A stretch of DNA of 32,603 nt from a virus (IMGVR_UViG_3300025718_000022:1-32603); one strand, 5' to 3'; shown: positions 1-26,154, counted from the first letter of the stretch. The notes: generated by a model from the letters alone, not told the origin. Numbers and translations: made by a program.

Positions 1-131
1 CAAGGCTTGCCACCTATGCCGCAAGGTGCATAGAAAATGAGATACTTATGCTTATTCGAAATAATAAAAAAACAAAAGGTGAAGTATACCTGCAGGATCC
101 TATTGGTATAGATAAAGAGGGAAATGAATAG
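1..131 (+). CDS. sigK: Sporulation sigma factor SigK, 5' portion (runs off left edge), interrupted by prophage
   Basis: Frame from nt 3 reads [42 protein letters not shown] then TAG (129-131). This matches the SigK region 2.4-3 signature ([14 protein letters not shown]...DPIGxDKEGNEISL). The expected ISL continuation is missing. Not in the ORF track. Confidence 0.93.
119..131 (+). other. Putative attL crossover region (GGGAAATGAATAG; AATGA at 123-127)
   Basis: SigK homology stops after GGA AAT GAA, and the recombinase stop codon lies 25 bp further on. The exact core cannot be defined without attR. Confidence 0.7.
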
Positions 132-155
132 CGTTCCATATGATAGACATATAGA

Positions 156-1661
156 CTAAACCTTAGGAAATAGCTTGATTGTAAAGTTATCATTCCTCTG
201 TTCTTTAGTCTTTTTATATTCAACTTTATATAATACACTTTTTAATAACTCATTTTTTAGAGCTATATCGTTTGTGTTTTTATAACTTTCAATTGCATTT
301 TTTATTTTAGTGGTACTATTATTATTTGTTTTTTTATTTTGTTTTTTTATTATAATTTTTATGTTGCAAATCTCATTTTCAATAGCGTCTGTACGATTAG
401 AGATATTATTCATACGCTCAATGAATACTTCGTTTGTGTAAATCTCTTGCTCTAGTAAATCAAATAATTTAAGTTTTTGGGAGCTTAATGTACCCAGTTC
501 TCTATTTAATATCTCAATTTGCTTTGCATATATATCTACATCGACAGTAGATGCGATATTCTCAGATTCGACATTTAAATCTTTTAAATATTGTTCAAGT
601 GATAATATAATTTCATGTTCAATGTATTTAAATTTAGCACTTCTATTACCACACTTATTTTTACAATTAATGTGGGCATCCTTATCTCCGTATTTTCGCA
701 TAAACATTTTACCACCACAGAGATCACACACAATTAAACCTGCAAGGGGATTTGCAACACCACTCGCAAATTTATAAGGTACATGATATTTTCCCTTTAA
801 AATTTCCTGAGCTTTATTAAAAGTTTCCTCTTTTATAATAGCTGGATGTTTTCCATCAGCAATTATCCATTCTTCTACAGCTCTTGTCTTTGAATCAGTA
901 ATCTTATTTGGATCCTTTGATTTTTTGATATCTTTCTTTTTCCAAGTAACTTTTCCAATATAGACAAGATTCTTTAGAGTAAATAAAATACTACTAGCTC
1001 CAAATTCATTGCCGAACTTTGTCTTGTATCCTAAACTATTAAAATAATTTGCAATTGTACCTGCTCCAGAACCTTCTGTATACATTTTAAATATTAATTT
1101 CACAACTTCACTTTCAATTTCATTAGGCTGTAAGGTCCTACTTTTATTTATAAAGGTAATGTCATAACCAAAAGGAGGGTTTGGGGATATGTAGTTTCCA
1201 TCCTCTACGCTACGGACTCTTCCACCCTGCATACGTCTATTTATCATCTTTAATTCTTTTCTAGCCATAAATGCTTCAAATTCGCTATATTCTTCATCAA
1301 AGTCGTTATCAAGGTCATATGTCTTTTGAGGGGTTATAATCTTGCACTGTGCGTCTTTAAATGTTTTTAATATTATGCCTTGGTCTTGCATATCACCACG
1401 CCCTAGACGCTGTATATCCATCGTTAAAACACCATCGTACTGTTTTTCTTCAATTTCTTTTAAAAGTTCCAACATTTTTGGCCTGAAAAATAGACTTTCA
1501 CCACTAACTATTTCTTCTTTAATTTCTACGATATTTAATTTTTTTTCCTTAGCAAATTTTAATAGAGCCCTCCTGTGCTTAGAGAGAGTTTCACCTTGGC
1601 CCAAAGTCTTTTCTAATTCTTCATCAGCTCTAGATTTCCTTAAATAAATAGCTATCTTCAT
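156..1661 (-). CDS. Large serine recombinase/integrase (SpoIVCA-like role)
   Basis: N-terminal YLRKS catalytic motif, DIQRLGR, PPFGY recombinase domain, LAGLIVCDLCG...CKNKC zinc ribbon, coiled coil; 501 aa; adjacent to the att site. Confidence 0.95.
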   Translation of the reverse strand: MKIAIYLRKSRADEELEKTLGQGETLSKHRRALLKFAKEKKLNIVEIKEEIVSGESLFFRPKMLELLKEIEEKQYDGVLTMDIQRLGRGDMQDQGIILKTFKDAQCKIITPQKTYDLDNDFDEEYSEFEAFMARKELKMINRRMQGGRVRSVEDGNYISPNPPFGYDITFINKSRTLQPNEIESEVVKLIFKMYTEGSGAGTIANYFNSLGYKTKFGNEFGASSILFTLKNLVYIGKVTWKKKDIKKSKDPNKITDSKTRAVEEWIIADGKHPAIIKEETFNKAQEILKGKYHVPYKFASGVANPLAGLIVCDLCGGKMFMRKYGDKDAHINCKNKCGNRSAKFKYIEHEIILSLEQYLKDLNVESENIASTVDVDIYAKQIEILNRELGTLSSQKLKLFDLLEQEIYTNEVFIERMNNISNRTDAIENEICNIKIIIKKQNKKTNNNSTTKIKNAIESYKNTNDIALKNELLKSVLYKVEYKKTKEQRNDNFTIKLFPKV

Positions 1662-2023
1662 TTTATTTTCCTCTCAATCTCTAAAAGTACAGCTTTTTTG
1701 ATGATTTCCCAAGCTTCATCACTAAGATCAGTATCTTTTATCAAGTCCGCTTCTATCATCTTATCTAATACTAAATCTACTGTATTAGGTGCTTCGTACT
1801 CATCAACACCATTCATCCAGAAACTTAAGGATTTACCACTATGTTCTGCTAACTTTATTAAAATTGTTTTAGATGGCGGTCGTTTACCACTTTCTAAGTT
1901 TCCAATATTACCCTTACTTATTCCTAGTTCAGTAGCAAGTCGGATTTGACCGACCTTCTCATTTCTTTTTATTGCTAATTCTTTTCTATATTCTTTTAAT
2001 TTTTCAGCAAATATTTTATTCAT
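1658..2023 (-). CDS. Phage immunity repressor, XRE/Cro-C1 HTH
   Basis: GQIRLATELGISKGNIGNLESGKRPPS HTH. Divergent from the cro-like gene. RBS GAGGTG precedes the ATG at 2023 (better than the GTG at 2032). Stop overlaps the recombinase start (ATGA). Confidence 0.88.
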   Translation of the reverse strand: MNKIFAEKLKEYRKELAIKRNEKVGQIRLATELGISKGNIGNLESGKRPPSKTILIKLAEHSGKSLSFWMNGVDEYEAPNTVDLVLDKMIEADLIKDTDLSDEAWEIIKKAVLLEIERKIK

Positions 2024-2041
2024 ATTTAACACCTCTTAACT

Positions 2042-2228: not shown

Positions 2229-2471
2229 ATGACAGGTTTGAGAAAATTAAGGTACGACAAAGGGCTTCAAAGAAAGTTTGTGGCACTTAAAATCGGTATC
2301 TGTGGAAAGCATCTCAATGACATTGAGATTGGCACAGTAAGCTTAACAGTTGATGTTGCAAAAAGGTTTTCGGACTTTTATGAAATTGAAGTTAACGAAA
2401 TAAATAATATGTATATGGAGGGTAAGAATGAGACAATCAGAAGTTTTAAAAAAACAGGATCAACTTCTTAA
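2229..2471 (+). CDS. Cro-like XRE HTH regulator
   Basis: LRKLRYDKGLQRKFVALKIGICGKHLNDIEIG HTH; strong RBS AGGAGGTG; divergent from the repressor. Confidence 0.85.
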   Translation: MTGLRKLRYDKGLQRKFVALKIGICGKHLNDIEIGTVSLTVDVAKRFSDFYEIEVNEINNMYMEGKNETIRSFKKTGSTS

Positions 2472-2517: not shown

Positions 2518-2588
2518 ATATTTATAGTAAAAGCAATCAAGGTATAGTACAAGCTGATGATTTCATAAGAAATATAGAGGTGGTTTAT

Positions 2589-2735
2589 ATGGTTCAAGTA
2601 ACAATAGTCAAACCGACTATTACCGCAGCAGAAGAAAAAAAAGTTTTTGAAGGTATAGCATATGTTTTAGAAAAAATAGCAAACAAAGAATTCGGTGGTA
2701 TGACTAAAATCACAATAACCCGAAATATCTCGTAA
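2589..2735 (+). CDS. 48-aa hypothetical early protein
   Basis: RBS AGAGGTG; MVQVTIVKPTITAAEEKKVFEGIAYVLEKIANKEFGGMTKITITRNIS. Confidence 0.6.
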   Translation: MVQVTIVKPTITAAEEKKVFEGIAYVLEKIANKEFGGMTKITITRNIS

Positions 2736-2868: not shown

Positions 2869-3054
2869 ATGTTAAAGGTGCTTATAGCGCAACTCATAGG
2901 ACAGGCTATTACAGATGAAGAGTTTGTAATAATAATGGAAATAGCTACCGATGATATTAAATTTAACAGAATTAGTTTTAAAAAATATACAAATTTAGCT
3001 TATGTTTTGGATATAGCAGCAAAGAGTGCTGAAATATTTAAAAGATGTGCTTAA
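2869..3054 (+). CDS. Hypothetical phage protein
   Basis: RBS AAGGAGG; 61 aa; in the early operon. Confidence 0.75.
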   Translation: MLKVLIAQLIGQAITDEEFVIIMEIATDDIKFNRISFKKYTNLAYVLDIAAKSAEIFKRCA

Positions 3055-3068
3055 AAGAAGGTAATGAG

Positions 3069-3218
3069 GTGGAAAGAATTATAGAGAAAAGTTTACAAAA
3101 GATAGTTGAATTATATTTTTATGGATACACAGTATCAGAAGCTATACAAGAAATTGACAAGCCAATAACAAAGAAAGAACCCTTATCAGAGGGTCCAGAC
3201 AAAACAATTCAAAAATAG
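3069..3218 (+). CDS. 49-aa hypothetical protein
   Basis: GTG start after GAAGGT; MERIIEKSLQKIVELYFYGYTVSEAIQEI...; fills the gap before the initiator. Confidence 0.5.
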   Translation: MERIIEKSLQKIVELYFYGYTVSEAIQEIDKPITKKEPLSEGPDKTIQK

Positions 3219-3259
3219 TATAACATATTTACTGAATAAATCAACATGGAGGGCACTGA

Positions 3260-4084
3260 ATGGCACAAAGAAGAATGTTTGCACTTAAAATTATAGATAC
3301 AGATTTATTTTTAGATATGCCAGTTAGCTCTCAGCTACTATATTTCCAACTTTCAATGAGAGCTGATGATGATGGGTTTGTAGGTTCTCCACAGAAAATA
3401 ATAAAAATGGTTAATTGTTCAAGTGATGATTTGAAAATATTAGTTTCAAAAAGTTTTATAATACCTTTTGAAAGCGGAATTTGCGTAATTAAACATTGGA
3501 AAATACACAATTATATACAAAAAGACAGGTATCAAAAAACATTATATGGCCAAGAAAAATCTTCTTTAGAAAATGATAATGGCACATATAATCTTATGGA
3601 TACAAAATGTATACAAAATGTACACGAAGTGGATACTCAGGTTAGGTTAGGTAAGGCTAGGTTAGGTAAGGCTAGTATAGATAAGATTAACAAAACTTTT
3701 TTATCCGATTCTGACGAATACAGATTATCTACTTTTTTATGGAATCATATTAAAAGGAATAATGAACTAGCAAAAGAGCCTAATATGCAAAAATGGTCCA
3801 AGCAATTTGATGCAATCATAAGATTGGATAATAGGAAAACAGAAGATATAAAAAATATAATAGCATTTGCTCAGAACAATGAATTTTGGTATAAAAATAT
3901 TTTATCACCGGATAAAGTTCGCAAACATTATGAGACTCTAATATTGCAAATGAAAGAGCCTAAGTATAAAAAAGAAGGCTGCAAGAAAAGTGACTTTGTT
4001 AATAATTGTAGCGAGAGAGAGCATGAAGCCGGTTACTATAAAGACTTAGAAGATAAGTTATTAGGATATAAAGATGCTGAATAA
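3260..4084 (+). CDS. Phage replication initiator (replisome organizer)
   Basis: N-terminus MAQRRMFALKIIDTDLFLDMP...ADDDGFV...IKHWKIHNYIQKDRY typical of Firmicute phage initiators; C-terminal FWYKNILSP; internal iterons. Confidence 0.9.
   Translation: MAQRRMFALKIIDTDLFLDMPVSSQLLYFQLSMRADDDGFVGSPQKIIKMVNCSSDDLKILVSKSFIIPFESGICVIKHWKIHNYIQKDRYQKTLYGQEKSSLENDNGTYNLMDTKCIQNVHEVDTQVRLGKARLGKASIDKINKTFLSDSDEYRLSTFLWNHIKRNNELAKEPNMQKWSKQFDAIIRLDNRKTEDIKNIIAFAQNNEFWYKNILSPDKVRKHYETLILQMKEPKYKKEGCKKSDFVNNCSEREHEAGYYKDLEDKLLGYKDAE
3597..3685 (+). repeat. Probable phage origin: four 11-bp iterons plus pentamer array
   Basis: TGGATACAAAA/TGTATACAAAA/TGTACACGAAG/TGGATACTCAG (3597-3640), then GTTAG GTTAG GTAAG GCTAG GTTAG GTAAG GCTAG TATAG ATAAG, inside the initiator gene. 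Confidence 0.8.
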
Positions 4085-4241
4085 GGATATATTCACTCTA
4101 AAAGAAATTGCAGAGGAGCTGGACAAGCTTATTAAATATACGATGGAGATGCATAGTCTAACTAGATACGATGGCGGAGAGAAGGCTAATATTCAAAAAC
4201 TGAGACTGTGGACGTACTATGTTTTAAAAGAAAATAAATAA
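4074..4241 (+). CDS. 55-aa hypothetical protein
   Basis: MLNKDIFTLKEIAEELDKLIKY...; overlaps the initiator stop; AGGA upstream. Confidence 0.55.
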   Translation: MLNKDIFTLKEIAEELDKLIKYTMEMHSLTRYDGGEKANIQKLRLWTYYVLKENK

Positions 4242-4266
4242 GTAAATAAATTAAGGGAGTGAAATT

Positions 4267-4542
4267 ATGAGTGGTAGAATATCAGCATTAAAAAATAAAA
4301 TAATGAAATTGGAGTCAAGCGCAAGCTTAAAAATGTATTTAAAAAAAGATAATGAGGTTATCATTGCCAAACAGGATTTACAATGCTTGCAAGTGGAAAT
4401 GGATAGCGTGCAATTAAGGCTAGACAAATGCCATGTGATGTTATTAATTTCCGATTTAGAAGTTACAAAATTAAATAAATATATAGAGGCGGAAGAAAGC
4501 AAGAAATTGAAAAATAGGTTTAAAAAGCTTTTAGGCGCTTAA
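4267..4542 (+). CDS. Hypothetical coiled-coil protein
   Basis: RBS GGGAGTG; 91 aa. Confidence 0.7.
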   Translation: MSGRISALKNKIMKLESSASLKMYLKKDNEVIIAKQDLQCLQVEMDSVQLRLDKCHVMLLISDLEVTKLNKYIEAEESKKLKNRFKKLLGA

Positions 4543-4800
4543 ATGGATGTTGAAAATATGTTAATCGCTGAGGATGTAAAAGGATTTGAAAAGCTTAAGG
4601 TGCAAGCAAACAAAGAGATGTTTAAACAGTTTTTAATTAATTTTTATCAAGCTTGGGGACTAGATGCAAGAGAGACTATTGTTCCCATTAGTATTAAGTT
4701 TTGTAAAGATAAATCAAATAGTAATTATCTTAGGTTTGATTATAAGATGTATGACAAAGCTGAATGGATTCATGTGAGAAATTCACGTGATTGGTATTAA
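4543..4800 (+). CDS. Hypothetical phage protein
   Basis: 85 aa, abuts the previous gene. Confidence 0.7.
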   Translation: MDVENMLIAEDVKGFEKLKVQANKEMFKQFLINFYQAWGLDARETIVPISIKFCKDKSNSNYLRFDYKMYDKAEWIHVRNSRDWY

Positions 4801-4835
4801 TTTAAAATTTAATTATGTAAGAGGAGTGAAAAACT

Positions 4836-5192
4836 ATGTTAAATAAAGCTATTGAAAAAATTAAAGCTGAAATTGTTGGAAGCAAAAATAATCCTTATAT
4901 TCAGGTAGTTGGAGAGTTTCTACTCCAATATCTTGAGAGTAATCCTAGTAGTGCAGAAAAAATTGTTCAAGAAGGAAAAACTATTGGATCAAGCTTGAAT
5001 GAAATGAAAAAAGAAGCGGAGAAAAAGAAAGTTGCGAACTGCGCAGTATTAACAGATCACGAAGGCTTTAGTATAGTTTTAAAATATTTTGATATCAAGA
5101 CAGTTAATCCAAGTGTTATTCCAAGGCCGGTTGAAGTTATTCAGGTATCAGATGAAAAACCTATTGAATTTAATGTTGAACTCGATTTTTAA
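4836..5192 (+). CDS. PcfK-like protein (family related to AcrIIA9)
   Basis: KTIGSSLNEMKKEAEKKKVANCAVLTDHEGFSIVLKYF pattern; immediately upstream of a PcfJ-domain gene, the usual pairing. Confidence 0.65.
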   Translation: MLNKAIEKIKAEIVGSKNNPYIQVVGEFLLQYLESNPSSAEKIVQEGKTIGSSLNEMKKEAEKKKVANCAVLTDHEGFSIVLKYFDIKTVNPSVIPRPVEVIQVSDEKPIEFNVELDF

Positions 5193-5205
5193 GGGAGGAT
5201 AAAAG

Positions 5206-6771
5206 ATGGATGAAGAATATGAAGAATACTTTGAACATTTCACAAAAGCAATAAGCAAAGAGACAAAGGATTATGCAACTAATGAAGTATTTAAATCTAA
5301 AAGATATATATTCACTAGACGCGAGGGCAGACAACAATATGGTTACTGTACTCACTGCAAGACAGAACTTAAAAGTGAGAGTTTAAAACATAATAAAAAG
5401 GCTGAATGTCCTAGGTGTAAAAGTGTATGTACTATAAAAAGTAGTGGCATGGGTAGGAGCACAATGATAGATGAAGCATATTTTGTTTATTATCAAAAAT
5501 CTCTAAAGGATCCTAATGTGATTACAGCAAAAGGTATATATGCAGTAAGAGACTATAGATATGATTACCATAATGTTAAAACAAAGTATGGAGAAACTGC
5601 ACTTTATATCTTTAGATTAGGAGCAAGCGTAATGCTCCAAAGAGAATTCTATTACTCGGGAGCTAAAGATATAAACTTATACAGTTACGGGAAGACTGGA
5701 AAAATTTATAGCGAGTACTACAGGGGCAGTTTAGCAAATATAAATACAGCTTGTCAATGCTCGGAGAAGAGTATAGAAGATGCAGTAAAGGATACTCCAT
5801 TTCAGTATTGTGGTTATAAGGATTACAGAAGGTATATAAACGACGATATAGTAGAATATTTTGACCTTTATACAAAGTATCCAAAGATTGAGTATCTTAC
5901 AAAGACTGGTTTGAATGAGTTAGTAAGAGATAAGTTGTTAGGATTCAAAACATATAGTGCTCTTAACTGGAGAGGAAATACTTTGTTTAAAATGTTGAAA
6001 ATCAATAAAGGTGATTTGAAAGAAATAAAGACAAAAAAAATTGAAATCACATTTTTATTTCTTAAGTATTTTCAAATTGCTAAAAAAGATGGCTCTAAAC
6101 TTTCACTTGAGCAAATTTCAGAGTTTTCTAAGCATTATATTGGAAATTACAATAAAATATATGGCATTTTAAAATATACTTCATTAAAAAAGGCAATTAG
6201 ATATATAGAAAAGCAGACCGAAGAGCGAAGCAAAGAGATTCTTAGCCACTATGTAAGTGATACGGTCATTACATGGAGGGATTATATAGATGATTGTATA
6301 AAACTTGGAATGGATTTAAGTAGTGAAAATGTTATTCTGCCTCGCGATTTATATACATCTCATGAAAACACTATAAAACAAATAAAACTAAAGGCTGATG
6401 AGACTTTGAATTTAAAAATGAAAGAAAGAAAGAAATTACTAGAAAGATATAGGTTCCAATATAATGGCTTAATGATTAGAGCTGCTGAAAGTTCTGATGA
6501 ACTTATTGCAGAAGGTGCAGCACTTAGTCACTGTGTAGGGATGTATGCTGGTAGGCATGCAAGTGGAGAAACTAATATATTGTTTATACGCAAAGCATCT
6601 GAGTTGGACAAGCCTTATTATACTGTAGAAGTCAAAAACAATATTATTATTCAAGTGCATGGTAAGAATAATCGTTCTGCAAATGAAGAAGTTGCGAATT
6701 TTGTTAATGCATTTAAAAATGAAAAATTAGAGAAGAAAACTAAGGAAAATAGAGTAAGATTAACAGCTTAA
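5206..6771 (+). CDS. PcfJ domain-containing protein
   Basis: N-terminal CTHC...CPRC zinc ribbon; C-terminal WRDYIDDC...PRDL..H and ELIAEGAALSHCVGMY...ILFIRK...PYYTVEV...QVHG. Confidence 0.85.
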   Translation: MDEEYEEYFEHFTKAISKETKDYATNEVFKSKRYIFTRREGRQQYGYCTHCKTELKSESLKHNKKAECPRCKSVCTIKSSGMGRSTMIDEAYFVYYQKSLKDPNVITAKGIYAVRDYRYDYHNVKTKYGETALYIFRLGASVMLQREFYYSGAKDINLYSYGKTGKIYSEYYRGSLANINTACQCSEKSIEDAVKDTPFQYCGYKDYRRYINDDIVEYFDLYTKYPKIEYLTKTGLNELVRDKLLGFKTYSALNWRGNTLFKMLKINKGDLKEIKTKKIEITFLFLKYFQIAKKDGSKLSLEQISEFSKHYIGNYNKIYGILKYTSLKKAIRYIEKQTEERSKEILSHYVSDTVITWRDYIDDCIKLGMDLSSENVILPRDLYTSHENTIKQIKLKADETLNLKMKERKKLLERYRFQYNGLMIRAAESSDELIAEGAALSHCVGMYAGRHASGETNILFIRKASELDKPYYTVEVKNNIIIQVHGKNNRSANEEVANFVNAFKNEKLEKKTKENRVRLTA

Positions 6772-6784
6772 ATTAAAGGAGGAA

Positions 6785-7849
6785 ATGGATATGAATGAGT
6801 TATCAAGCGTTTTAAAATCAATAGGAGAAAGCGAAATAGTAATAAAAAGCAATGAAAATTTTGTTGGAATGGGTTTGTGGAATATAGGGAATGAACTTAA
6901 ATACATTCGAGATAATAAAACCTACACTGAAAAGAGTTGTAAAAGTTTTGAGGAGTATGTTGAAAAGGAACTAGATTATTCAAAGCGAAATGCTTATAGA
7001 TATATTGAAATATCAGAAGGGTACAATGTGACATCGATGGCACAAATAGGACATTTGGGAATGGTTAAGCTACTTGCACTATCAAAACTTGATGAAGTTA
7101 ACCGCAAAGAATTTATTCAGATAAATGAAGTGGATAAAATGACAACAAAAGAGTTCCAACAGGCTATAAAAGATAAAAAGGAACTGGAAAACAAATTAAA
7201 GGCAGCAGAGGCACAAATAGAAACTGAGCATAATTCATATGAAAAAATATCAGATAGCTATAGTAAATTAGAAAAAACAAATAAAGGACACTTTGAAAAA
7301 TCTGAAAAATTGAAAAAACAACTTATAGACGATAAACAAATATATGAAAATAAGTTAAAAGCCATAGAAATTACACTTCAAAAAGAAAAGGATGATTTGA
7401 AAAAGGAGAAAGAAAATTCTAAAGAAGAAATTGCAAAACTTCAAACATTTATTGGAGAGGCCAAAGCTGTTGGAAATGATGAAGAGGTAATAAGGCTCCA
7501 GGCATCACTAACGGAAATACAAACTGATTTAGATAGCTCAGCTCAAAAGATAGATGAACTCGAATCACAACTCAAAGAAAGACCTATTGACGTAATAACT
7601 GCAGAACCAGTAATAATTGAAAAGGTACCTGAGGAAATACAAAAAGAGCTTGAGGGGTTTAGGGCAAAAGATATTCGAGATAACAATCCTTTGCTTAAAA
7701 AGTTTAGAAAAAATCATGGAATACTTAATCTAATGTTTGCTGATCAATTGAAAGTAATAGCTGAAATAGAAAAGGATGATCCTGAAACTTATGTTAAATG
7801 CAAAGATGCTTTTTCAAATTTAATAAGCAAAATGTCTGAAAGATTATAA
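6785..7849 (+). CDS. DUF3102-like protein with long coiled coil
   Basis: IGNELKYIRD...FEEYVEKELDYSKRNAYRYIEI and MTTKEFQQAIK motifs. Confidence 0.75.
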   Translation: MDMNELSSVLKSIGESEIVIKSNENFVGMGLWNIGNELKYIRDNKTYTEKSCKSFEEYVEKELDYSKRNAYRYIEISEGYNVTSMAQIGHLGMVKLLALSKLDEVNRKEFIQINEVDKMTTKEFQQAIKDKKELENKLKAAEAQIETEHNSYEKISDSYSKLEKTNKGHFEKSEKLKKQLIDDKQIYENKLKAIEITLQKEKDDLKKEKENSKEEIAKLQTFIGEAKAVGNDEEVIRLQASLTEIQTDLDSSAQKIDELESQLKERPIDVITAEPVIIEKVPEEIQKELEGFRAKDIRDNNPLLKKFRKNHGILNLMFADQLKVIAEIEKDDPETYVKCKDAFSNLISKMSERL

Positions 7850-7863
7850 ATAAGGAGGACCAT

Positions 7864-7989
7864 ATGGGCAGCAAGTATGTATGTCAGGGGTGCAAATTTA
7901 ATAATAATGGTTGGTGCAAGAAACATAAAATTGAAAATCTTAAAGTTAAAAAGATTCAAGTGTGCGAGAGCCATAGAAAAACAAATTAA
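7864..7989 (+). CDS. 41-aa Cys-rich hypothetical protein
   Basis: RBS AAGGAGG; MGSKYVCQGCKFNNNGWCKKH... Confidence 0.6.
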   Translation: MGSKYVCQGCKFNNNGWCKKHKIENLKVKKIQVCESHRKTN

Positions 7990-8009
7990 TAAATGGAGGT
8001 ACGTACTTA

Positions 8010-8378
8010 ATGCAGAAAAGAATATGTCCTAAATGCTTAACAAGGTGGTATTCGTGTGCTCACAACTTAGAAGTTTGGAAATGTGGAAGTTGTGGCCATG
8101 ATATTCCAGTACCAAAGAAGGATGAAAGTGTGATTAAATTATTTCAAATTTTCATTTGTGGAGAAATAGGTTGGGTTACTGAAAATCCTCATAATTTTGA
8201 AAATGAGATTGAGGAATATATAAGAGAATTCAACAAAGATATTGGTACAAAAGATACTATGGATAAAATTGAAAAATTAAATATTGGAGAAGAATTTGAG
8301 GTTGAAGAAATAAAGTTCCAGTGTATTGAAATGGGGTTGGAAGAGTATTCAAATTTAGGTGAGTGGAGTGGCTGGTAA
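8010..8378 (+). CDS. Zinc-ribbon hypothetical protein
   Basis: CPKC...CGSC N-terminus, acidic C-terminus; RBS GGAGGT. Confidence 0.7.
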   Translation: MQKRICPKCLTRWYSCAHNLEVWKCGSCGHDIPVPKKDESVIKLFQIFICGEIGWVTENPHNFENEIEEYIREFNKDIGTKDTMDKIEKLNIGEEFEVEEIKFQCIEMGLEEYSNLGEWSGW

Positions 8379-8437
8379 GCCACTCTTGATAAATAGTGTG
8401 AAGTAACTAATTAAAAATCGAGAGGGGCAAATTATTA

Positions 8438-9598
8438 ATGAGTATAGATAGTTTTACTGTATATAAAGATTCAGTAAGTATTAATTTTTATAATAATTCG
8501 GGAGAAAGAAAAGATATATTAGCAGAGGATTGGACACATTACAAAATTCTTGATAAGGTATTAAATTTTATGAAAAAAAGGGGATTCAAAGTAGGCAAAG
8601 ATCCTAGGATTGAAAAAGATTATAAATGCTTGAGTAAAGATCATAGAGCTGGACAAAAATGCGAATTAAGATTTAAAACACATAGATACCCAGCAGGATT
8701 TGGGATTGAATTTTATCAAGAAATAAATACAAAGAATAAAAGTGGTGGTTTTTATGATTTTAATAAATTTAGTATGATGCCCTATTTAATAAAACTAGCA
8801 TTTATTAATGAATCAAATAAAATAGCTGAATTTCTAGAAAAGTTAGGTGTAGAAAATAAAGAAAAGCATGAATATAAACTTGCGGAAGATCAAATTAAAA
8901 ATGATTGGGTAAGTAGTTGCCATTACCCACAAAAAGATATGAATTTTGAATTATCTGATTTAGATGGTACAACATGCGAAGGCAGCTATAACAATACAGA
9001 TAGAGATAAAAAGACCATATTAAATGGACAAATAAAATATTTCAGACATTGGGATGGCAGGCTAATGCGTGGGAAAGTATATCGCAATTTAAATAATATG
9101 TGGTGGGCAATCATAAATGATACTGAAATTAGGAATACAGCTGACTTTGAATTATTTGACCCAACGGATGAAGATTTTAAAATAAGACGTTTTAAAAAAG
9201 GTAAAAACCCAAAGATTTTAACTGGGAATGAAAAAGCTAGACAGTGTTTTAAAGATAAAGGACTTACTTATAACAACATAACTGAGGGTGATATTTGTGT
9301 ACTTGCTATGTTGTTAAATAAAAGCATTAAAACTGCTTGCAAAAATCACGAAATGTCAGTTGATACCATGAGGATGAGTTTAAAAATAAAAAGTAAGTTT
9401 ACAAACAACGGAGAATTAATTGAGTGCTATCTATATGTGAATAGTCATTATTTTACTCAAAGGGAATGTATTAGTTTTAATAAGGATGGGTTTATAGGGT
9501 TTTGTGGATGGGCCGCTGGAGACAATGCAATACCAATACTAAAAGCCTTTTGTAAATGGTGTGATCAATTAACCGATATGGAGGAAAATAATGAATAA
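8438..9598 (+). CDS. Hypothetical phage protein, probably two domains
   Basis: 386-aa ORF with RBS GAGGGG. Confidence 0.8.
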   Translation: MSIDSFTVYKDSVSINFYNNSGERKDILAEDWTHYKILDKVLNFMKKRGFKVGKDPRIEKDYKCLSKDHRAGQKCELRFKTHRYPAGFGIEFYQEINTKNKSGGFYDFNKFSMMPYLIKLAFINESNKIAEFLEKLGVENKEKHEYKLAEDQIKNDWVSSCHYPQKDMNFELSDLDGTTCEGSYNNTDRDKKTILNGQIKYFRHWDGRLMRGKVYRNLNNMWWAIINDTEIRNTADFELFDPTDEDFKIRRFKKGKNPKILTGNEKARQCFKDKGLTYNNITEGDICVLAMLLNKSIKTACKNHEMSVDTMRMSLKIKSKFTNNGELIECYLYVNSHYFTQRECISFNKDGFIGFCGWAAGDNAIPILKAFCKWCDQLTDMEENNE

Positions 9599-9749
9599 AA
9601 AATGCGTTCTATGTGGCTGGAGAAGCGATAAATGTAAAAACCATGACAATATACACTATGACCAATTTAGACATGGAGAGGATAGATGTAGTGGAAATAT
9701 AAAGGCAAAGAAAGCGGAGGTTAAAGATCATGAGCTTTTGGGAAAGTAA
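9591..9749 (+). CDS. 52-aa Cys-rich hypothetical protein
   Basis: RBS GGAGG; MNKKCVLCGWRSDKCKNH...; overlaps both neighbours. Confidence 0.55.
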   Translation: MNKKCVLCGWRSDKCKNHDNIHYDQFRHGEDRCSGNIKAKKAEVKDHELLGK

Positions 9750-10134
9750 AAAAATAAAGAAAACTAGAAAGATACACAGATGTGCATATTGCGGAGGAAT
9801 AATTTCAGTTGGAAGTAGTTGCAACAATGAAGTTGGGACATACGAGGGTGATTTTGATAATTATTATTTAGATAAAAGGTGTATTTCATTTATGGACCTC
9901 TTTACTGATAAATCTGAAACAGAATTAGGTAATTTGGATGATGATTTAGCAAATTCTGACCTATTGGATTGTCCTATATGTGGCAAAAGTAACCATAGTG
10001 AATATGAATTCAAGGAAAATAAACAAAGTTTGAGTTTAGAATGTGATGATTGCGGTAATAGATGGGTATTAGATTTGTCACTTGAAGCTATAGAAAAACT
10101 GAAAATAATGAAACGAGGTGCCAGTAAATGTTAA
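9730..10134 (+). CDS. Double zinc-finger hypothetical protein
   Basis: KTRKIHRCAYCG, CPIC...CDDC; RBS GGAGG. Confidence 0.75.
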   Translation: MSFWESKKIKKTRKIHRCAYCGGIISVGSSCNNEVGTYEGDFDNYYLDKRCISFMDLFTDKSETELGNLDDDLANSDLLDCPICGKSNHSEYEFKENKQSLSLECDDCGNRWVLDLSLEAIEKLKIMKRGASKC

Positions 10135-10316
10135 GTGAGAAAACATTTAAAGAAATGGAAATAAACTATGGGTGTGGTTACTGGGGCATGTGTTATGAGC
10201 ATTCATGTCCTTGTGCAATAGTTACTGAAAATAAAGGGTTGCAAGAAAGTATTTACAATGGATTTGTTAAAGAAAACCGTAAATTACGTGAAGAATACGA
10301 TAAATATGGATTTTAG
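10128..10316 (+). CDS. Cys-rich hypothetical protein
   Basis: RBS GAGGTG; 62 aa. Confidence 0.65.
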   Translation: MLSEKTFKEMEINYGCGYWGMCYEHSCPCAIVTENKGLQESIYNGFVKENRKLREEYDKYGF

Positions 10317-10353
10317 TTAATACAAAATATGAGAAAATAAGGAGGATATTTAG

Positions 10354-10524
10354 TTGTTCTTTGGAGAAATTAAACTGGATTTTTTAGATGGCTTATGCAA
10401 ATGGAAAAACTGCAAAGTCATTGAAATAGATGATAAAGAAATGGATGAATGTAGTTTTAACAATGATTGTGAAAATTGTGGAATGAATACAAAAAGTGAT
10501 AGTTATGATAGCAACAATAATTAG
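10354..10524 (+). CDS. 56-aa Cys-rich hypothetical protein
   Basis: AAGGAGG then TTG; MFFGEIKLDFLDGLCKWKNC...DCENC. Confidence 0.6.
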   Translation: MFFGEIKLDFLDGLCKWKNCKVIEIDDKEMDECSFNNDCENCGMNTKSDSYDSNNN

Positions 10525-10611
10525 TCAAAACATGAAAAAATAAACATATTCGTGAAGTCACAAAAAGGAGTTGTTCGGTAATTCCGGGCAACTGAAAGGT
10601 AAAAAAATATA

Positions 10612-10791
10612 ATGGAAAAAGAAAAACCAATAATAATTAATATACCAGCTGTAGAAACTTGGACTATTACAGACCTTAGATATACTTGCAGAAAAAATAA
10701 AATAAAAGGTTATACAAAAATGAATAGGGACGAGCTAATAATTGAGGTAAATAGTATTATCACAAATAGTTATTCTAAATTCAAAATATGA
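10612..10791 (+). CDS. 59-aa protein with Rho N-terminal-like (HeH) nucleic-acid-binding motif
   Basis: WTITDLRYTCRKNKIKGYTKMNRDELI resembles the Rho_N pattern TxxELKxxAKxxGIKGYSKMxKxELI. Confidence 0.55.
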   Translation: MEKEKPIIINIPAVETWTITDLRYTCRKNKIKGYTKMNRDELIIEVNSIITNSYSKFKI

Positions 10792-10805
10792 AATGAGGTG
10801 CAACA

Positions 10806-10943
10806 ATGAGTTGTAAATGTTCAAAATGCGAGCTTTGTGAAAAACATACCCAATTAAAAAATACACTAATAATCAAAAATAAAATAAATGGTAAGGAACT
10901 AAGAATTTGCAAGAAATGCGGTAAAGAATTTAATTGGATATAG
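10806..10943 (+). CDS. 45-aa zinc-finger peptide
   Basis: RBS GAGGTG; CELC...ICKKCG. Confidence 0.6.
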   Translation: MSCKCSKCELCEKHTQLKNTLIIKNKINGKELRICKKCGKEFNWI

Positions 10944-10998
10944 GTGATTGTTACTACAAAATATGAGAAAAATACGTCATAATCGAAAGGAGTTAATT

Positions 10999-11178
10999 AT
11001 GTTTTTAAGCAGAGAAGAAAGAGCCTTAGTATTGACATATAGGATTCAGAAAGAGAGGGAACTAACACTAATGGGTGGGCATACCTCCTACGATATTGGA
11101 GAAAAAAGAATAAGAAAACTAAAGAAGAAAATAGAAAAAATTGGTGGTAATTCAGATTTAATACTTGACATTAATTAA
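10999..11178 (+). CDS. 59-aa hypothetical protein
   Basis: RBS AAAGGAG precedes the ATG at 10999; the 10948 start in the ORF track lies in a junction repeat. Confidence 0.65.
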   Translation: MFLSREERALVLTYRIQKERELTLMGGHTSYDIGEKRIRKLKKKIEKIGGNSDLILDIN

Positions 11179-11221
11179 GTCACACTTCAATAGTATCATG
11201 TCACATTGAAAGGAGAATATT

Positions 11222-11674
11222 ATGAATAAATTTACTGTTATAAAAAATGAGGATATTGAAAAATACTTAGCCCCAGTAGATGCTAATGACTTAATTCATT
11301 TAATTGAAAGATTGCGAGTATCTAAAGGTTGTAATAGTGGTATTAAAAAAGAAAATAGATATGCAATAATAAATCTTGATGAAGTTTATGCTAAAGAGAT
11401 TATAGAAATAATGAAAAAACATGGGCATTGGGGCGAATTAGTCAATGGGTTAAATGGGAAAATGGACATTGAGAAAGCAAAAAAACTATGTGATGAACAT
11501 GAGATATTATCAAAAACAGTTAGAGTAATAGAAGAGGCAGCAAAAGAAAATCATTGGGTTGCTATAAAAACACCTAGAGGTGAAAGCTCTCTTTCTAACA
11601 ATCAAATAAGAATTGTGTTAGAAGACGCAAGAGAAAGACTTGATGAGATAGAAAAAATAATAAAAAAAGATTAG
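11222..11674 (+). CDS. Hypothetical phage protein
   Basis: RBS AAAGGAG; 150 aa. Confidence 0.75.
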   Translation: MNKFTVIKNEDIEKYLAPVDANDLIHLIERLRVSKGCNSGIKKENRYAIINLDEVYAKEIIEIMKKHGHWGELVNGLNGKMDIEKAKKLCDEHEILSKTVRVIEEAAKENHWVAIKTPRGESSLSNNQIRIVLEDARERLDEIEKIIKKD

Positions 11675-11700
11675 TTGCGCAATTCAAGAAGGAGGTATAT

Positions 11701-12033
11701 ATGAGTAATAGTAATGAATCTAGTGAAGATAAGCAAAAAAGATTAGGGTGTTACATGGGTAGAGGCATTAACAATTGGCGTTGCTATAAAGATTGTGCAT
11801 TTTGGGATGGTAAAAAGTGTACCAACTATGAATTAGAAAAAGAAACGGATATAGGGGTTACATGGCAAGAAGCATTTCAAGCAGGATTAGAAGGTAAAAA
11901 AATAAAGGTATATGGTCAATATTTAACATACCGTAAATTTGAATCTTTGCATTTTGCTTTGGAGTATTTAAGCATAAGACCAAATTATTATAAAGATTTA
12001 TTAAGGAAAGAGTGGTATATCCAAAAATCTTAA
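11701..12033 (+). CDS. Hypothetical phage protein
   Basis: RBS AAGGAGGT; 110 aa. Confidence 0.75.
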   Translation: MSNSNESSEDKQKRLGCYMGRGINNWRCYKDCAFWDGKKCTNYELEKETDIGVTWQEAFQAGLEGKKIKVYGQYLTYRKFESLHFALEYLSIRPNYYKDLLRKEWYIQKS

Positions 12034-12071
12034 AGTTGGATTAAAAAATAGGGTGAAGCAAAGGAGGAGTT

Positions 12072-12236
12072 ATGAAATTTAACATAATAAAGGCTGTAGG
12101 CATGTTCTTAATATTACTTGTATTTTTTACATCAACAATGCTTGGGTTAAAAACAATTTTCACAGGATATAGTTTGTTTATCAGCTATTTAGCTCTTTGC
12201 ATAGGAAGTGTTCTTTTCTCTTATGAAAATAAATAG
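12072..12236 (+). CDS. 54-aa two-TM membrane protein
   Basis: RBS AAGGAGG; MKFNIIKAVGMFLILLVFFTSTMLGLKTIFTGYSLFISYLALCIGSVLFSYENK. Confidence 0.65.
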   Translation: MKFNIIKAVGMFLILLVFFTSTMLGLKTIFTGYSLFISYLALCIGSVLFSYENK

Positions 12237-12271
12237 ATGAGATACAAAAATATTACGAAAGGAGTGATTTT

Positions 12272-12436
12272 ATGATTATAGAAGAAAGTACTGGTAAAGA
12301 AGTAATACTAATAAGAGGATATACGTTAAGTAATAGTAAAGGTGAAGTTATAGCAGAGGTAAAGGATCACTTGCAGTATGTAGATGGAACTCAGTTAGAC
12401 AAACAGCCACCAAATGTTAGGTTGATAGAACAATGA
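12272..12436 (+). CDS. 54-aa hypothetical protein
   Basis: RBS AAAGGAGTG; MIIEESTGKEVILIRGYTL... Confidence 0.65.
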   Translation: MIIEESTGKEVILIRGYTLSNSKGEVIAEVKDHLQYVDGTQLDKQPPNVRLIEQ

Positions 12437-12470
12437 TGTAATACAGCAAAATTGATTAGGAGGGGATTAA

Positions 12471-12725
12471 ATGACTAACGATGAGCTAGAAGAAGCTAAT
12501 AAAATTAAGAAAGAAATAAAAGAATTAGAGTTTTTCATATGGAAGGCTGAGCATGTTTGGACAGGTAAAATAATAAAAAAAGATACAAAATATATTTTTA
12601 AAGCTAATGCTTATGGTGGACTAGAGTCTGCTGAGTATAACATGAATACAGAAATGAAAGACAAAGTTTTAGATGTTTTACGAGACCGTTTAAAAGAATT
12701 AAAAATGAAACTAGAAAATATTTAG
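12471..12725 (+). CDS. Hypothetical phage protein
   Basis: RBS AGGAGG; 84 aa. Confidence 0.75.
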   Translation: MTNDELEEANKIKKEIKELEFFIWKAEHVWTGKIIKKDTKYIFKANAYGGLESAEYNMNTEMKDKVLDVLRDRLKELKMKLENI

Positions 12726-12744
12726 TTGCATAATATAAAGTTAT

Positions 12745-12969
12745 TTATTTGATTGAATTTGTTTCACAAGGAAATTCTATTAAATCAAATAAACAAATAT
12801 CAAGGTCAACACAAATCATATCAAATTTCCTAAGTGGAATTTCACCAACATCTTTATTATTCCACATTCTTAATATATAAAGTTTGCTTAATCTAGTCTT
12901 AGTTTGTAATTCTTTTACAGTGATTATACCTTTGGTTTCACAAATTTGTTTAAGATTACATTTACACAT
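12745..12969 (-). CDS. Small XRE-type (HTH_26-like) regulator, reverse orientation
   Basis: NLKQICETKGI...ELQTKTRLS...FDMICVDLDICLFDLIEF; own RBS AAGGAG and an extended -10 (TGTTACAAT) on the minus strand. Confidence 0.75.
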   Translation of the reverse strand: MCKCNLKQICETKGIITVKELQTKTRLSKLYILRMWNNKDVGEIPLRKFDMICVDLDICLFDLIEFPCETNSIK

Positions 12970-13084
12970 ATATTATCAGCTCCTTATATTTATTGTAACA
13001 GTAAAAGGATAGCAAAAGAAATATATTTTAAAAAGATTAAAATTTCAAAGTTTTTATTGAATATTTCATTATAGTATCTATAAC

Positions 13085-13179
13085 GAGAAAAGAGAGCTCC
13101 GCCTAGTCAACAGGTTGCTCTCTAATCTCTTAAATTCCACAAGGGTATATAGCAATTATACACCTGTATCTCCTTGTGG
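13085..13179 (+). promoter_or_regulatory. Two-hairpin structured region upstream of the tyrosine recombinase
   Basis: AGAGAGC(13091-97)/GCTCTCT(13117-23) and CCACAAGG(13137-44)/CCTTGTGG(13172-79), each with inner stems. Confidence 0.6.
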
Positions 13180-13206
13180 CAAATAAAAATTATAGGAGGC
13201 ACATGA

Positions 13207-14199
13207 ATGTCAATTGCAAATAATGAGGTAATAATTAGGTTAGTTGGTAAATTAACGTTAGAGTTTCCAACAATAGATCAACTTAAGGTTAGACAAATCG
13301 CGGAAGAGGTACTTTATAAATATGATATTGTACCGCAAGAAAATGCATTAGTGGCAAGTGATATTGAGGATAGATTGATAATATATTTAGCTTGTAAAAA
13401 GCTAGATGGACTAAGTGTAGATACACTGAAGAATTATAAAGGAGAATTATTAAGGTTTACAAATTGTCTTATAAAGCCAGTTGCAACCGTAACTACTATG
13501 GACTTAAGGATGTACTTATCGCAAAGATGTAAAAATCTTAGTCCTGGAACCCAAAATACAATGATGTATATTTTAAGATCTTTCTTTTCATGGCTATGTG
13601 ATGAAAAGTATATCCCAGAGGACCCATCTAGAAGATTAAAAGCGACTAAAGAACCTGTTCGATTAAGACAACCTCTTGCAGAAGATGAAATGGAAATATT
13701 TAGACAGGCTTGTATAACAGATAGAGAAAAAGCGTTAACAGAATTTTTATATAGCTCAGCTTGTAGGCTTCATGATGCATATAGCTTAAATATAAGCCAA
13801 GTTGATTGGAACGAATGTACAGCTGTGGTAATCGGTAAAGGTAATAAAGAACGTATAATTTATTTTAGTATCAAAGCAAAAATACTATTACAAAAATATT
13901 TTAAAACAAGAAAAGGCGAAAGTGATGCATTGTTTATAACAGAAAAATTCCCATTTAACAGACTGGGGAAACGTAGCATAGAGCGAGCAATAACAAAAAT
14001 AAATATAAGAAGCGGATTAAAAGTAAATGTATTTCCTCATAAAATGAGGCATACGAAAGCCTCTGATTTAGCAAATGCGGGAGCTCCAATACAGATAATC
14101 CAGGGCATTTTGGGCCATAACAATATTACATCTACAACGATATATGCAAAAACTACAAAAGCTAATATGTTGCATGAATTTAGAAGATTTTCTGCTTAA
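13207..14199 (+). CDS. XerC/D-like tyrosine recombinase
   Basis: SAM-like N-domain; catalytic SACR, GKGNKER, HKMRH, LGH, TTIY all present. Confidence 0.93.
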   Translation: MSIANNEVIIRLVGKLTLEFPTIDQLKVRQIAEEVLYKYDIVPQENALVASDIEDRLIIYLACKKLDGLSVDTLKNYKGELLRFTNCLIKPVATVTTMDLRMYLSQRCKNLSPGTQNTMMYILRSFFSWLCDEKYIPEDPSRRLKATKEPVRLRQPLAEDEMEIFRQACITDREKALTEFLYSSACRLHDAYSLNISQVDWNECTAVVIGKGNKERIIYFSIKAKILLQKYFKTRKGESDALFITEKFPFNRLGKRSIERAITKINIRSGLKVNVFPHKMRHTKASDLANAGAPIQIIQGILGHNNITSTTIYAKTTKANMLHEFRRFSA

Positions 14200-14237
14200 A
14201 CAAATTATTTAAATAACATAATAGGGGGAAAACAAAT

Positions 14238-14753
14238 TTGAACAAAATACAGTTAGAAAAAATACTTAGAGGGTATAAGGTCAATAAATCCATAGTTGAT
14301 ACTACAAATGCAAGAATACAAGCTTATACTGATGCAATGAATAATCCTGAATTGATTGCATCGTGGGGTTATTCAATTAATACAAGAGAACCTGGAATGC
14401 CAGGAGCACCATTAAGGAATACATCATCACCTATTGAACGTGAAATTTGTGATAGTGAATTGACAATTGAAACTATTAAAGAATGGATTGCAGAGGATAG
14501 GAGCAGAATATATAGATATAATTTGCAAACAGACATAATAGAAGGTGCCTTAAAATCACTTACAGAGCAAGAAAAATATATAGTTGAGTTAAAATATTTT
14601 GAAAAGATGTGTTGGAGTAATATAGAATTAAATTTCAATAACCAATTTAAACAGAAAAATGATATATCTAGCGAACAAATAAGAAAGCTAAGTACACAAA
14701 TTTTAGATAGCTTATTAGTGGTAATTTCACCTCTCAAAAGCACATTTATATAA
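14238..14753 (+). CDS. ArpU/RinA-like late transcriptional activator
   Basis: C-terminal ALKSLTEQEKYIVELKYFEKMCWSNI (sigma region-4-like HTH); last early gene, followed by tandem repeats. Confidence 0.75.
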   Translation: MNKIQLEKILRGYKVNKSIVDTTNARIQAYTDAMNNPELIASWGYSINTREPGMPGAPLRNTSSPIEREICDSELTIETIKEWIAEDRSRIYRYNLQTDIIEGALKSLTEQEKYIVELKYFEKMCWSNIELNFNNQFKQKNDISSEQIRKLSTQILDSLLVVISPLKSTFI

Positions 14754-14821
14754 AACTACCTAAAAACTACCTGAAAATTACCTGTAAATTCACTGTTTTA
14801 TCCATTTTAATGATATATAAT
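14752..14821 (+). promoter_or_regulatory. Putative late promoter: four 11-bp direct repeats plus TATAAT
   Basis: AAAACTACCTA/AAAACTACCTG/AAAATTACCTG/TAAATTCACTG (14752-14795); -10 TATAAT at 14816-14821; no canonical -35. Confidence 0.75.
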
Positions 14822-14846
14822 AATATTGTTAGAAAAATATAGAAAC

Positions 14847-14885
14847 AAAAAGGAACTCAAAGCCATGTGCTAAGGGTTCCTTTTT
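14847..14885 (+). terminator. Intrinsic terminator-like hairpin (possibly bidirectional)
   Basis: AAAAAGGAAC...GTTCCTTTTT. Confidence 0.65.
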
Positions 14886-14904
14886 ACGTGAAAGGGGCAA
14901 GGAC

Positions 14905-15129
14905 ATGCAAAGTATTTATACAGGGTATAAATGTATTTCATGTAGATCAGAATTTGTTTTATTAAGTGAAGATATTAAAAAGATGGCTAAAGGTAGATAT
15001 GTAGCATGTCCTTACTGCAGTAGTAAAAAGGTTAAAATTGAAAATTGTAATAATAGTCTAAAAGAGTGTATGGGACATGATGCTTATAAGAAAGTTCATG
15101 GAGCTCTAAGGCAGGTGAGAAATGGGTAA
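14905..15129 (+). CDS. Zinc-ribbon protein
   Basis: YKCISC...ACPYCSS; overlaps the next gene. Confidence 0.75.
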   Translation: MQSIYTGYKCISCRSEFVLLSEDIKKMAKGRYVACPYCSSKKVKIENCNNSLKECMGHDAYKKVHGALRQVRNG

Positions 15130-15745
15130 TACAATGAGACCAATTGAAAATATGGAAGATGTAAAGAGACTACAGTATTATTTTAATTGCAGAAACCCTA
15201 GAGATAAAATGCTATTTCGTTTGATGCTGCAGACAGGATATAGAATTGGAGATATGGTAGGGCTGCTAGTCGGCGATGTAAAAGAGGCCATAGATATAAG
15301 ATGTTTTATCATAAGAGAAAATAAAATAGTAAATATGAAAAAACATTATTGTAGAGAAAAAGGAATAAATTTCATAGAAACTGATGTCATTCCTAGAAAA
15401 GTACCTATACCTTTAGATTTTATAAAAGAGCTAAAAAAATATATAGAAAATAAAAAAGATAATGAGTATATGTTTCCATCAAGAAACACTGGATTTCATA
15501 TATCAGAAGATAGATTTGGAAAGATACTAAGTGAAGCAGGAAAAGAATGTGGCATCAAAGATCATATTTGTAATCATACACTTAGAAAAACGTATGCACT
15601 TAATATTCAAATAATAACTGGTGACATATCAAAAACACAAATGATGTTAGCTCATTCATGCAAAGAAGCTACAGAAAAGTATCTTGGAATTGACATGATA
15701 ATGTTTAAAAACACTATGGATGACTTAAATAAGCGATACAGATAA
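15122..15745 (+). CDS. Short tyrosine recombinase (catalytic domain only)
   Basis: TGYRIGD, HTLRKTYA, LAHS, TEKYLG; 207 aa, no N-terminal core-binding domain. Confidence 0.9.
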   Translation: MGNTMRPIENMEDVKRLQYYFNCRNPRDKMLFRLMLQTGYRIGDMVGLLVGDVKEAIDIRCFIIRENKIVNMKKHYCREKGINFIETDVIPRKVPIPLDFIKELKKYIENKKDNEYMFPSRNTGFHISEDRFGKILSEAGKECGIKDHICNHTLRKTYALNIQIITGDISKTQMMLAHSCKEATEKYLGIDMIMFKNTMDDLNKRYR

Positions 15746-16493: not shown

Positions 16494-16511
16494 TAGAGGA
16501 GTGATTAAGAC

Positions 16512-16715
16512 ATGTATAGGTGGAAAATTACAATGGCAAGTAGCAAAGAATATATAGTGTGGAGTGATATGAAAGAAGCATATGATATGAACAAATATGT
16601 ATTTGGTGTTGAAGCAAATGGAATATGTTTAAGTTACCATACCCTTGATAAGACATCGCAACAGGGTGTTACTATTAATAGCAGAATGGTAGAAAGCATT
16701 GAATTAAATTTTTAG
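16512..16715 (+). CDS. Hypothetical protein
   Basis: RBS GAGGAGTG; 67 aa. Confidence 0.7.
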   Translation: MYRWKITMASSKEYIVWSDMKEAYDMNKYVFGVEANGICLSYHTLDKTSQQGVTINSRMVESIELNF

Positions 16716-16727
16716 GAGTGATTATTA

Positions 16728-17024: not shown

Positions 17025-17035
17025 CAGGTGAGAGT

Positions 17036-17473: not shown

Positions 17474-17570
17474 TGGGGGGGCGGTCGAAAAAGTTTTGAA
17501 GTAATTTTAAAAAACCGTATGGAATCAAACAGAAAGAATTAATCTGTAAAATGAAAGTTTTGAAATTTTA
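17474..17570. other. Probable cos region
   Basis: Intergenic between HNH and P27-type terS; G7 run (17475-81); AAAGTTTTGAA direct repeat at 17490 and 17554. Confidence 0.5.
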
Positions 17571-26151: not shown

Positions 26152-26154
26152 AGA

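Follow-up and report, generated by a model that had tools for sequence, protein, structure and literature searches.

The window analyzed here, which is an entire virus record of 32,603 bases, very probably covers the left attachment junction (attL) of a temperate siphovirus and the greater part of its genome, the phage being inserted in sigK of a Clostridium closely related to C. tagluense, where it would be a reversible resident. Such an arrangement is already known from phiS63, the site-A prophages of C. tetani, phage MMB025, and 15 surveyed skin elements, and the locus itself therefore adds an example from peat that is similar to C. tagluense. The features identified in the window are listed in Table 1.

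Table 1. Features of the window, with positions counted from its first base.
Feature	Position	Strand	Basis or remark
Internal fragment of the sigK 5' half, host DNA	3..128	+	Cut by record start; ends GNE
attL	101..152	+	Host B arm ~101-125; GA 126-127 (putative crossover); phage P' arm 128-152
Large serine integrase, 501 aa	156..1661	-	PF00239 Resolvase, PF07508 Recombinase, weak PF13408 Zn-ribbon
CI-like HTH repressor	1658..2032	-	PHROG transcriptional repressor/regulator matches; overlaps integrase start
Three 23-bp partly palindromic repeats	2055-2077, 2090-2112, 2183-2205	.	Repeat search; self-symmetry 14, 16, 18 of 23
Cro-like HTH protein	2229..2471	+	phrog_3
Weak sigma-E-like motif (ATA, 15 bp, CATA) and conserved ATAG(T/G)ACAA element	2542..2571	+	Just upstream of 48-aa ORF
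48-aa ORF	2589..2735 (listed from GTG 2580)	+	Short extended segment and one helix; candidate recombination directionality factor
Early/replication region	2869..15745	+	Profile and PHROG matches
DnaD-like initiator	3260-4084	+	
PcfJ-like protein	5206-6771	+	
Two tyrosine-recombinase-like genes	13207-14199, 15122-15745	+	
Late regulator-like gene	14238-14753	+	
Packaging and head: HNH nuclease, small and large terminase, portal, protease, HK97-type major capsid	16008..23199	+	PHROG; TIGR01554
Connector and tail	23253..32603	+	Adaptor, head-completion, terminator, major tail protein, chaperone, tape measure, Dit, Tal, BppU-type protein cut by record end

Interrupted sigK gene and extent of the record

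The left end of the window carries a sigK fragment of 42 codons in frame 3, which ends with DKEGNE and runs into a TAG stop codon at 129-131. This reading had been given in an earlier note on the same DNA and is confirmed by the translation and by the profile scores (TIGR02846 for SigK, E 1.2e-22, versus TIGR02835 for SigE, E 1.2e-13), with the match to TIGR02846 spanning profile positions 100-141 of 227. The interrupted copy is a canonical-type sigK, with its reading frame broken at the TAG. The fragment shares 41-42 of its 42 residues with SigK from the canonical locus of relatives (6/6 copies), compared with 37-39 residues for the extra SigK copies of relatives (8/8 copies). It is identical (42/42) to the canonical SigK of G016, G023, and C. 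tagluense, and its DNA is 95% identical to that of G016.

A large serine recombinase gene convergent with sigK is indeed present, as had been noted earlier, although the two stop codons are separated by 24 bp (132-155) rather than 25 bp. The phage genes described behind it were also found, occupying the remainder of the window (32 kb). However, the description of the prophage as full-size and structurally complete did not stand. The right end of the record falls within a BppU-type tail/baseplate gene, no lysis gene was recognized among the 53 ORFs of the window, and no 3' sigK motif was found in any of the six frames across it. Because the record stops inside a tail gene, it contains no attR, no 3' sigK half, and no lysis genes, and completeness is unproven.

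The integrase and its relatives

The integrase gene lies at the element edge and encodes intact catalytic and zinc-binding residues; Ser10 and Cys312/315/333/337 are invariant across 24 aligned relatives. The protein matches SPbeta SprA in the PDB (E 1.8e-41). Its sequence identity is 80% to the homolog of C. tagluense A121, 65% to that of C. magnum, 62% to that of C. fallax, 62-63% to those of the phiCT A-site phages of C. tetani, and 56% to gp24 of phiS63. In a tree of 40 rows, from which four of 30 loci collected earlier were left out as duplicates or broken, the integrase groups with those of C. tagluense and the viral contig L173 (support 100/99), and a 28-row clade around it (100/99) includes phiS63 and phiCT19406A.

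Among 385 scored genomes of the family (16 others were not scored), the integrase was detected at E<=1e-100 in 22, and 5' sigK is found on its 3' side in 19 of these. The other three cases are a contig ending at the core, a locus without sigK within ~15 kb, and a distant integrase. The integrase clade and the adjoining 5' sigK support the earlier classification of the element as a skin-like, phiS63-type prophage in sigK. The phage is otherwise mosaic, with 8 of the 53 window proteins matching the C. tagluense-like provirus G005 and 2 of 53 matching phiCT19406A. Separately, the contig L171 (G048:C210) ends exactly at the sigK core, which suggests a split or mixed locus in G048.

Attachment junction and probable crossover site

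Both halves of sigK occur in four named genomes. They are ~51 kb apart in C. magnum and 3.9 kb apart in C. fallax, whereas C. tagluense and Ca. C. eludens each have them on two different contigs. Virtual excision restores an open reading frame in every case, measuring 248, 237, 236, and 237 codons between stop codons, and the virtual attP of all four is most symmetric around the GA within the Asn-Glu codons. The same GA is the center of attP symmetry in phiS63 and L008, and the symmetry also peaks on it in the attP-form viral contigs L173, L174, and L180; the integrase of L173 is 80% identical to that of the window. Based on this GA-centered symmetry in the relatives, we infer that the crossover dinucleotide of the window is GA at 126-127, such that the TAG at 129-131 is provided by the phage P' arm. 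The earlier placement of the phiS63 core at the GNEI codons was right; the core given in the relevant passage of the phiS63 paper, GTAATGAAAT (PMC3442830), is centered on the same GA. Precise and in-frame excision is thereby supported in the relatives by their predicted products, and by analogy the 3' half of sigK would be expected beyond the missing right end, with in-frame restoration here as well.

Two peat runs contain the element, one of which is possibly the source of the record itself. In run X1, a contig identical to positions 1-127 (depth 47) stops at 127 and the prophage contig (depth 7.8) begins at 98, indicating a branch at the core. The prophage/sigK junction was seen in one of the two runs, the possible source. 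No attP path was seen in that run, and no attR junction was found among the loose ends listed for the two runs when these were compared with the sigK of an intact relative.

As a metagenome contig, the record includes just 127 bp of host DNA, and with the junction seen in one of two runs, assembly might have fused host sigK to phage DNA by mistake. Such an assembly artifact is largely refuted and scarcely credible: the junction recurs in many independent genomes, the join coincides exactly with the crossover of the family, and the P' arm resembles those of C. tagluense and L173.

A pattern scan of metagenome contigs returned two matches, L078 and L079. The former (L078:5114-5255) is a true attR accompanied by lysis-type genes, and its P arm fits the P' arm of the window at 18/25; it has no overlap with the window and cannot be assigned as its far end. 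The latter was rejected as a chance match. Four further loci (L192, L199, L200, and L205) encode integrases of 49-50% identity and have the 3' half of sigK beside the integrase 3' end, such that these elements are in the opposite orientation at about the same sigK codon.

Phage gene content

The CI-like repressor is 80% identical to that of the C. tagluense element, and the three 23-bp repeats are likely its operators. No ImmA-type protease gene is located between the repressor and the integrase, unlike in phiCT19406A and THSA-485A. The 53 ORFs cover 91% of the window, and the main virion genes are full length. With full packaging, head, and tail modules present, this is not a defective element devoid of virion genes. 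An infectious phage is plausible, as close relatives exist in attP form (L173, L174, and L180), which is indirect evidence.

The head-completion gene (23564-23911) has an ATA start right behind a stop codon, and its 80%-identical relative L128 has ATG. This ATA (23564-23566) may be a rare start, a lesion, or an assembly error. The ATA start, the lack of an ImmA-type protease beside the repressor, and the lack of an attP path in the possible source run could all be read as signs of a prophage in decay that has lost the ability to form particles. We consider such decay unlikely: ATA is an allowed rare start or possibly an assembly error, contigs drop rare forms, and the dense ORF coverage, the full-length main virion genes, and the operator-like repeats all argue against it.

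Two tyrosine-recombinase-like genes sit mid-genome in this serine-integrase phage, and the larger (13207-14199) has homologs of 52-55% identity in two other sigK prophages. At 25740-26200, an overlapping open frame follows the tail chaperone gene, and a 42-aa hydrophobic ORF precedes the tape-measure gene. A tail chaperone followed by an overlapping open frame is the usual frameshift arrangement. No tRNA gene was found in the window, and none of the 13 proteins examined was convincing as a defense protein.

A small ORF as candidate directionality factor

Serine integrases require a partner protein for excision (PMC6957869; PMC5025042), and the finding and binding of such directionality factors have been described (PMC12286644; PMC11722253; PMC11795197). 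For the yin element, a factor was proposed by modeling (PMC10747680). None is named for phiS63 or the C. tetani sigK phages in the literature passages considered here. To find shared genes, all ORFs of 35-160 aa located up to 9 kb from the integrase were compared among 30 elements (five of them near-duplicates). An ORF of 48 aa was found in 23 of the 30; two HTH genes were found in 25, and the next best ORF in eight, making the 48-aa ORF the only widely shared small gene that does not encode an HTH protein. Of the seven elements in which it was missed, three offered <510 bp of flanking sequence, and G004 has a divergent copy at a greater distance. The homolog in phiS63 is unannotated (26372-26503), and that in phiCT19406A is gp09.

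The association was also seen in a set of 80 viral loci. The 48-aa ORF is located within 6 kb of all 21 integrases that are at least 55% identical to that of the window, compared with 9 of the 59 integrases below 55%; this threshold was chosen after the data had been seen, and three of the 21 loci were already in the ORF alignment. Furthermore, elements stripped of the repressor and virion genes keep the integrase and the 48-aa ORF (3/3), namely, those of C. fallax (~3.9 kb; L085), G318 (~5.6 kb; L281/L123), and G255 (~8 kb; L124). In G318, the ORF is the sole gene between the integrase and attR. This retention fits the attL-int-rdf-attR unit outlined in PMC6957869. Given the 21/21 close viral integrases and the 3/3 stripped elements, the 48-aa protein is reasonably likely to act as the directionality factor.

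These mini skin elements (C. fallax, G318, and G255) also carry cargo that is host-like. The integrase of G255 is divided between two reading frames, yet the element interrupts sigK.

The 48-aa protein could instead be a generic small phage protein, with the true factor encoded elsewhere, perhaps in the missing right end. A family-wide search found the ORF in 26 of 387 genomes, and 13 new places were examined, none of which had a large serine recombinase in the stretch covered (0/13). Two are at contig ends in genomes where a different contig end carries the sigK integrase, and one resembles an unrelated enzyme. The others, about 10, are true orphans; a tyrosine integrase adjoins one of them, and some are solitary on the chromosome. 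These roughly 10 homologs without a nearby serine recombinase fit a generic protein, as does the location of the rdf gene at the far end of the element in SPbeta and phi3T (PMC6957869). However, apart from the integrase, G318 and G255 have retained no phage-type gene other than the 48-aa ORF. In addition, directionality factors are often scavenged phage proteins (PMC11795197), which would explain the orphan homologs. A generic protein is thus a real possibility, although one that we are inclined to doubt.

Among these additional homologs, three (L160, L159, and L166) are immediately followed by an excisionase-like HTH gene, one of them also being accompanied by a tyrosine integrase. Three others (L164, L165, and L167) are solitary chromosomal copies, including a second C. 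tagluense copy preceded by the same motif.

The structure model of the 48-aa protein has one helix (residues 16-38; mean pLDDT 79). It had no fold match in the PDB, and the sequence had no PDB match of note. No Pfam family was matched, the PHROG matches were only of unknown function, no match was found in the Atlas, and a word-index search returned only the protein itself. A profile of the ORF did not match the SprA-SprB fusion chain. The identities of the integrase and the 48-aa protein are correlated (rho 0.47, n=14), which is expected from shared descent and is not counted as support. In a control with tyrosine integrases, the ORF was found in 0 of 29 loci; this control is poorly matched (24-37% identity to the seed) and carries little weight.

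Promoter motif upstream of the 48-aa ORF

Relatives of the element share the ATAG(T/G)ACAA element upstream of the 48-aa ORF and often have ATA, 14-16 bp, and CATA just before the ribosome site. A longer sigma-E consensus was used for scoring. Mismatches to this consensus average 4.0 in 17 related elements versus 5.3 in 165 control genes. The window copy has five mismatches, which is no better than the controls, and 11 further loci average 4.7. For SpoIIID, 4 of 18 sequences have a perfect box versus 1.2 on average after shuffling (at least 4 in 10 of 300 shuffles), which is a weak signal. Among published motifs, the sigma-E -35 motif is ATA and the mother-cell -10 box is CATATTAT (PMC3789822); in PMC517825 and PMC7438776, the consensus logos are given as figures only. 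Expression of the 48-aa ORF in the mother cell may thus be taken as a modest lead. Because the ORF follows cro, lytic induction could also express it.

Copies of sigK in the host and its relatives

In peat run X2, a 424-bp contig (depth 49) is identical to the window over 1-127 and runs 49 bases into an intact 3' sigK; an empty site therefore exists for this allele. The prophage pieces in this run have depths of 2-5, contig depth not being a share of cells. Of 30 sigK loci, the best found among 60 relatives, 28 are uninterrupted; the other two are the junction of C. tagluense and a contig that stops exactly at the core. In G033, the contig of L042 (G033:C10) ends exactly at the sigK core, which suggests a split or mixed locus there.

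Furthermore, 15 of 21 close relatives, with sigK DNA 87-95% identical to the fragment, have two or three SigK genes, counted as full-length genes over the family cut-off. This host may accordingly not need excision. The one or two extra genes are located at unrelated chromosomal sites in G006-G026; examples of extra sigK genes are L065 (G016:C8), L067 and L069 (G023), L071 (G010), and L075-L077 (G027). A loss of the target site in the spare copies was considered and rejected; some have AATGA changed to AAAGA, yet the central GA is kept. No report on multiple sigK copies or on sigK in C. estertheticum was found in a literature search that mostly covered papers outside subscription.

In C. tagluense A121, sigK is split and the draft genome yielded no intact copy, yet the strain is described as forming endospores (PMC6357643). 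This is an argument that lysogens of the prophage family do rebuild sigK. The earlier note held that the element must excise for sporulation. This is partly supported: it fits A121, the nearest named lysogen, but is not assertable for the present host, given the uninterrupted allele in peat, the 28/30 intact loci, and the spare sigK in 15/21 relatives.

Two further interpretations bear on these observations. The element could be a domesticated and obligatory switch, as are skinBs and skinCd, in which timed mother-cell excision from the only sigK of the host controls sigma-K. We regard this as improbable. Sporulation of A121 without an intact sigK found, the stripped elements that keep only the integrase, the 48-aa ORF, and cargo, and the enrichment of the sigma-E-like motif across the 17 elements would all agree with it, but an obligatory switch is difficult to reconcile with 28 of 30 related loci being uninterrupted, an integrase in only 22 of 385 family genomes, the same allele being empty in peat contigs, the frequent spare sigK in relatives, and the full packaging, head, and tail modules retained by the element.

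Conversely, the phage could be a parasite that knocks out the canonical sigK and excises only for lytic growth, with the host using a spare sigK or not sporulating. The spare SigK genes of 15/21 close relatives, the weakness of the promoter motif in the window, and the position of the 48-aa ORF behind cro, where induction alone could express it, are in line with this interpretation. Against it, A121 is a spore former without a spare copy found, and elements without a repressor or cro still keep the 48-aa ORF and its upstream motif. A pure parasite consequently also seems unlikely to us.

Comparison with known elements

The comparisons below follow the relevant passages of the papers cited. phiS63 (JQ660954; PMC3442830) is, like the present element, a siphovirus-type temperate phage in sigK at the GNEI codons, with its integrase gene opposite to sigK and an integrase of the same clade. 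Induction and precise excision were shown experimentally for phiS63, with the sporulation phenotype left open, whereas the present element is known from sequence alone. The two also differ in host group. The site-A prophages of C. tetani (skinCt; phiCT19406A, phiCTC2A, phiCT9441A, and phiCT453A; PMC5553647) are full prophages at the same sigK site, and their attL starts with the same GNE junction as the window. However, these phages are described as resembling myoviruses, and a DUF955 gene adjoins their repressor gene, whereas the present phage is a siphovirus. In C. difficile, skinCd (CD1231 recombinase and CD1234 RDF; PMC5025042) has a similar location in sigK, and its serine recombinase with a small directionality factor controlled by sigma-E/SpoIIID is a model for the timing of the present element. 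It differs in being a 14.6-kb defective element with the recombinase in the other orientation and a host SigK without a pro-sequence.

The earlier note places the break point of the B. subtilis skin element at IENEI. This skin element (SpoIVCA and Skr) and SPbeta (SprA and SprB) are both serine-recombinase elements that split a sporulation gene, as is the case here (PMC6957869). As a precedent, SPbeta is an active phage that is excised under stress as well as during sporulation, although it targets spsM rather than sigK; skinBs inserts in a different sigK region and is defective, unlike the present element. The Alicyclobacillus phage MMB025 (PMC13141910) is an infectious phage identical to a prophage integrated in sigK; it differs from the present phage in being a 105-kb contractile-tailed phage with a TCTC core and a host of another class. 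In a survey of Firmicutes, 15 skin elements were described, with only the recombinase common to them (bioRxiv 10.1101/2022.02.25.481979).

Proposed cycle and implications

In the scenario that we favor, the serine integrase likely inserted the phage at the GA of the sigK Asn-Glu codons and would excise it precisely, likely aided by the 48-aa protein. This protein would be made after prophage induction, as part of the early region behind cro, and perhaps also from the weak sigma-E-type promoter in the mother cell. With such mother-cell expression, the lysogen would rebuild sigK and finish the spore. The phage would then be an optional resident with reversible insertion, not a switch on which the host lineage depends.

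A broader version of this scenario is put forward tentatively, being possible but doubtful as a whole. The 48-aa protein would be the excision factor of all phiS63/C. tetani sigK phages and would have its own mother-cell promoter, such that lytic phages double as sporulation switches. These phages would decay to elements of 4-8 kb that leave the integrase and the 48-aa gene, and the spare sigK of psychrotolerant clostridia would bypass the switch.

These results would fix the crossover dinucleotide for the family of sigK phages of the phiS63/C. tetani type, and they name a testable directionality-factor candidate that is unannotated in phiS63. If the pair of integrase and factor is confirmed, it would provide a further reversible recombinase tool from cold-adapted clostridia. 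The spare sigK genes in the host clade are relevant to the question of whether such phages control sporulation or simply leave it unharmed.
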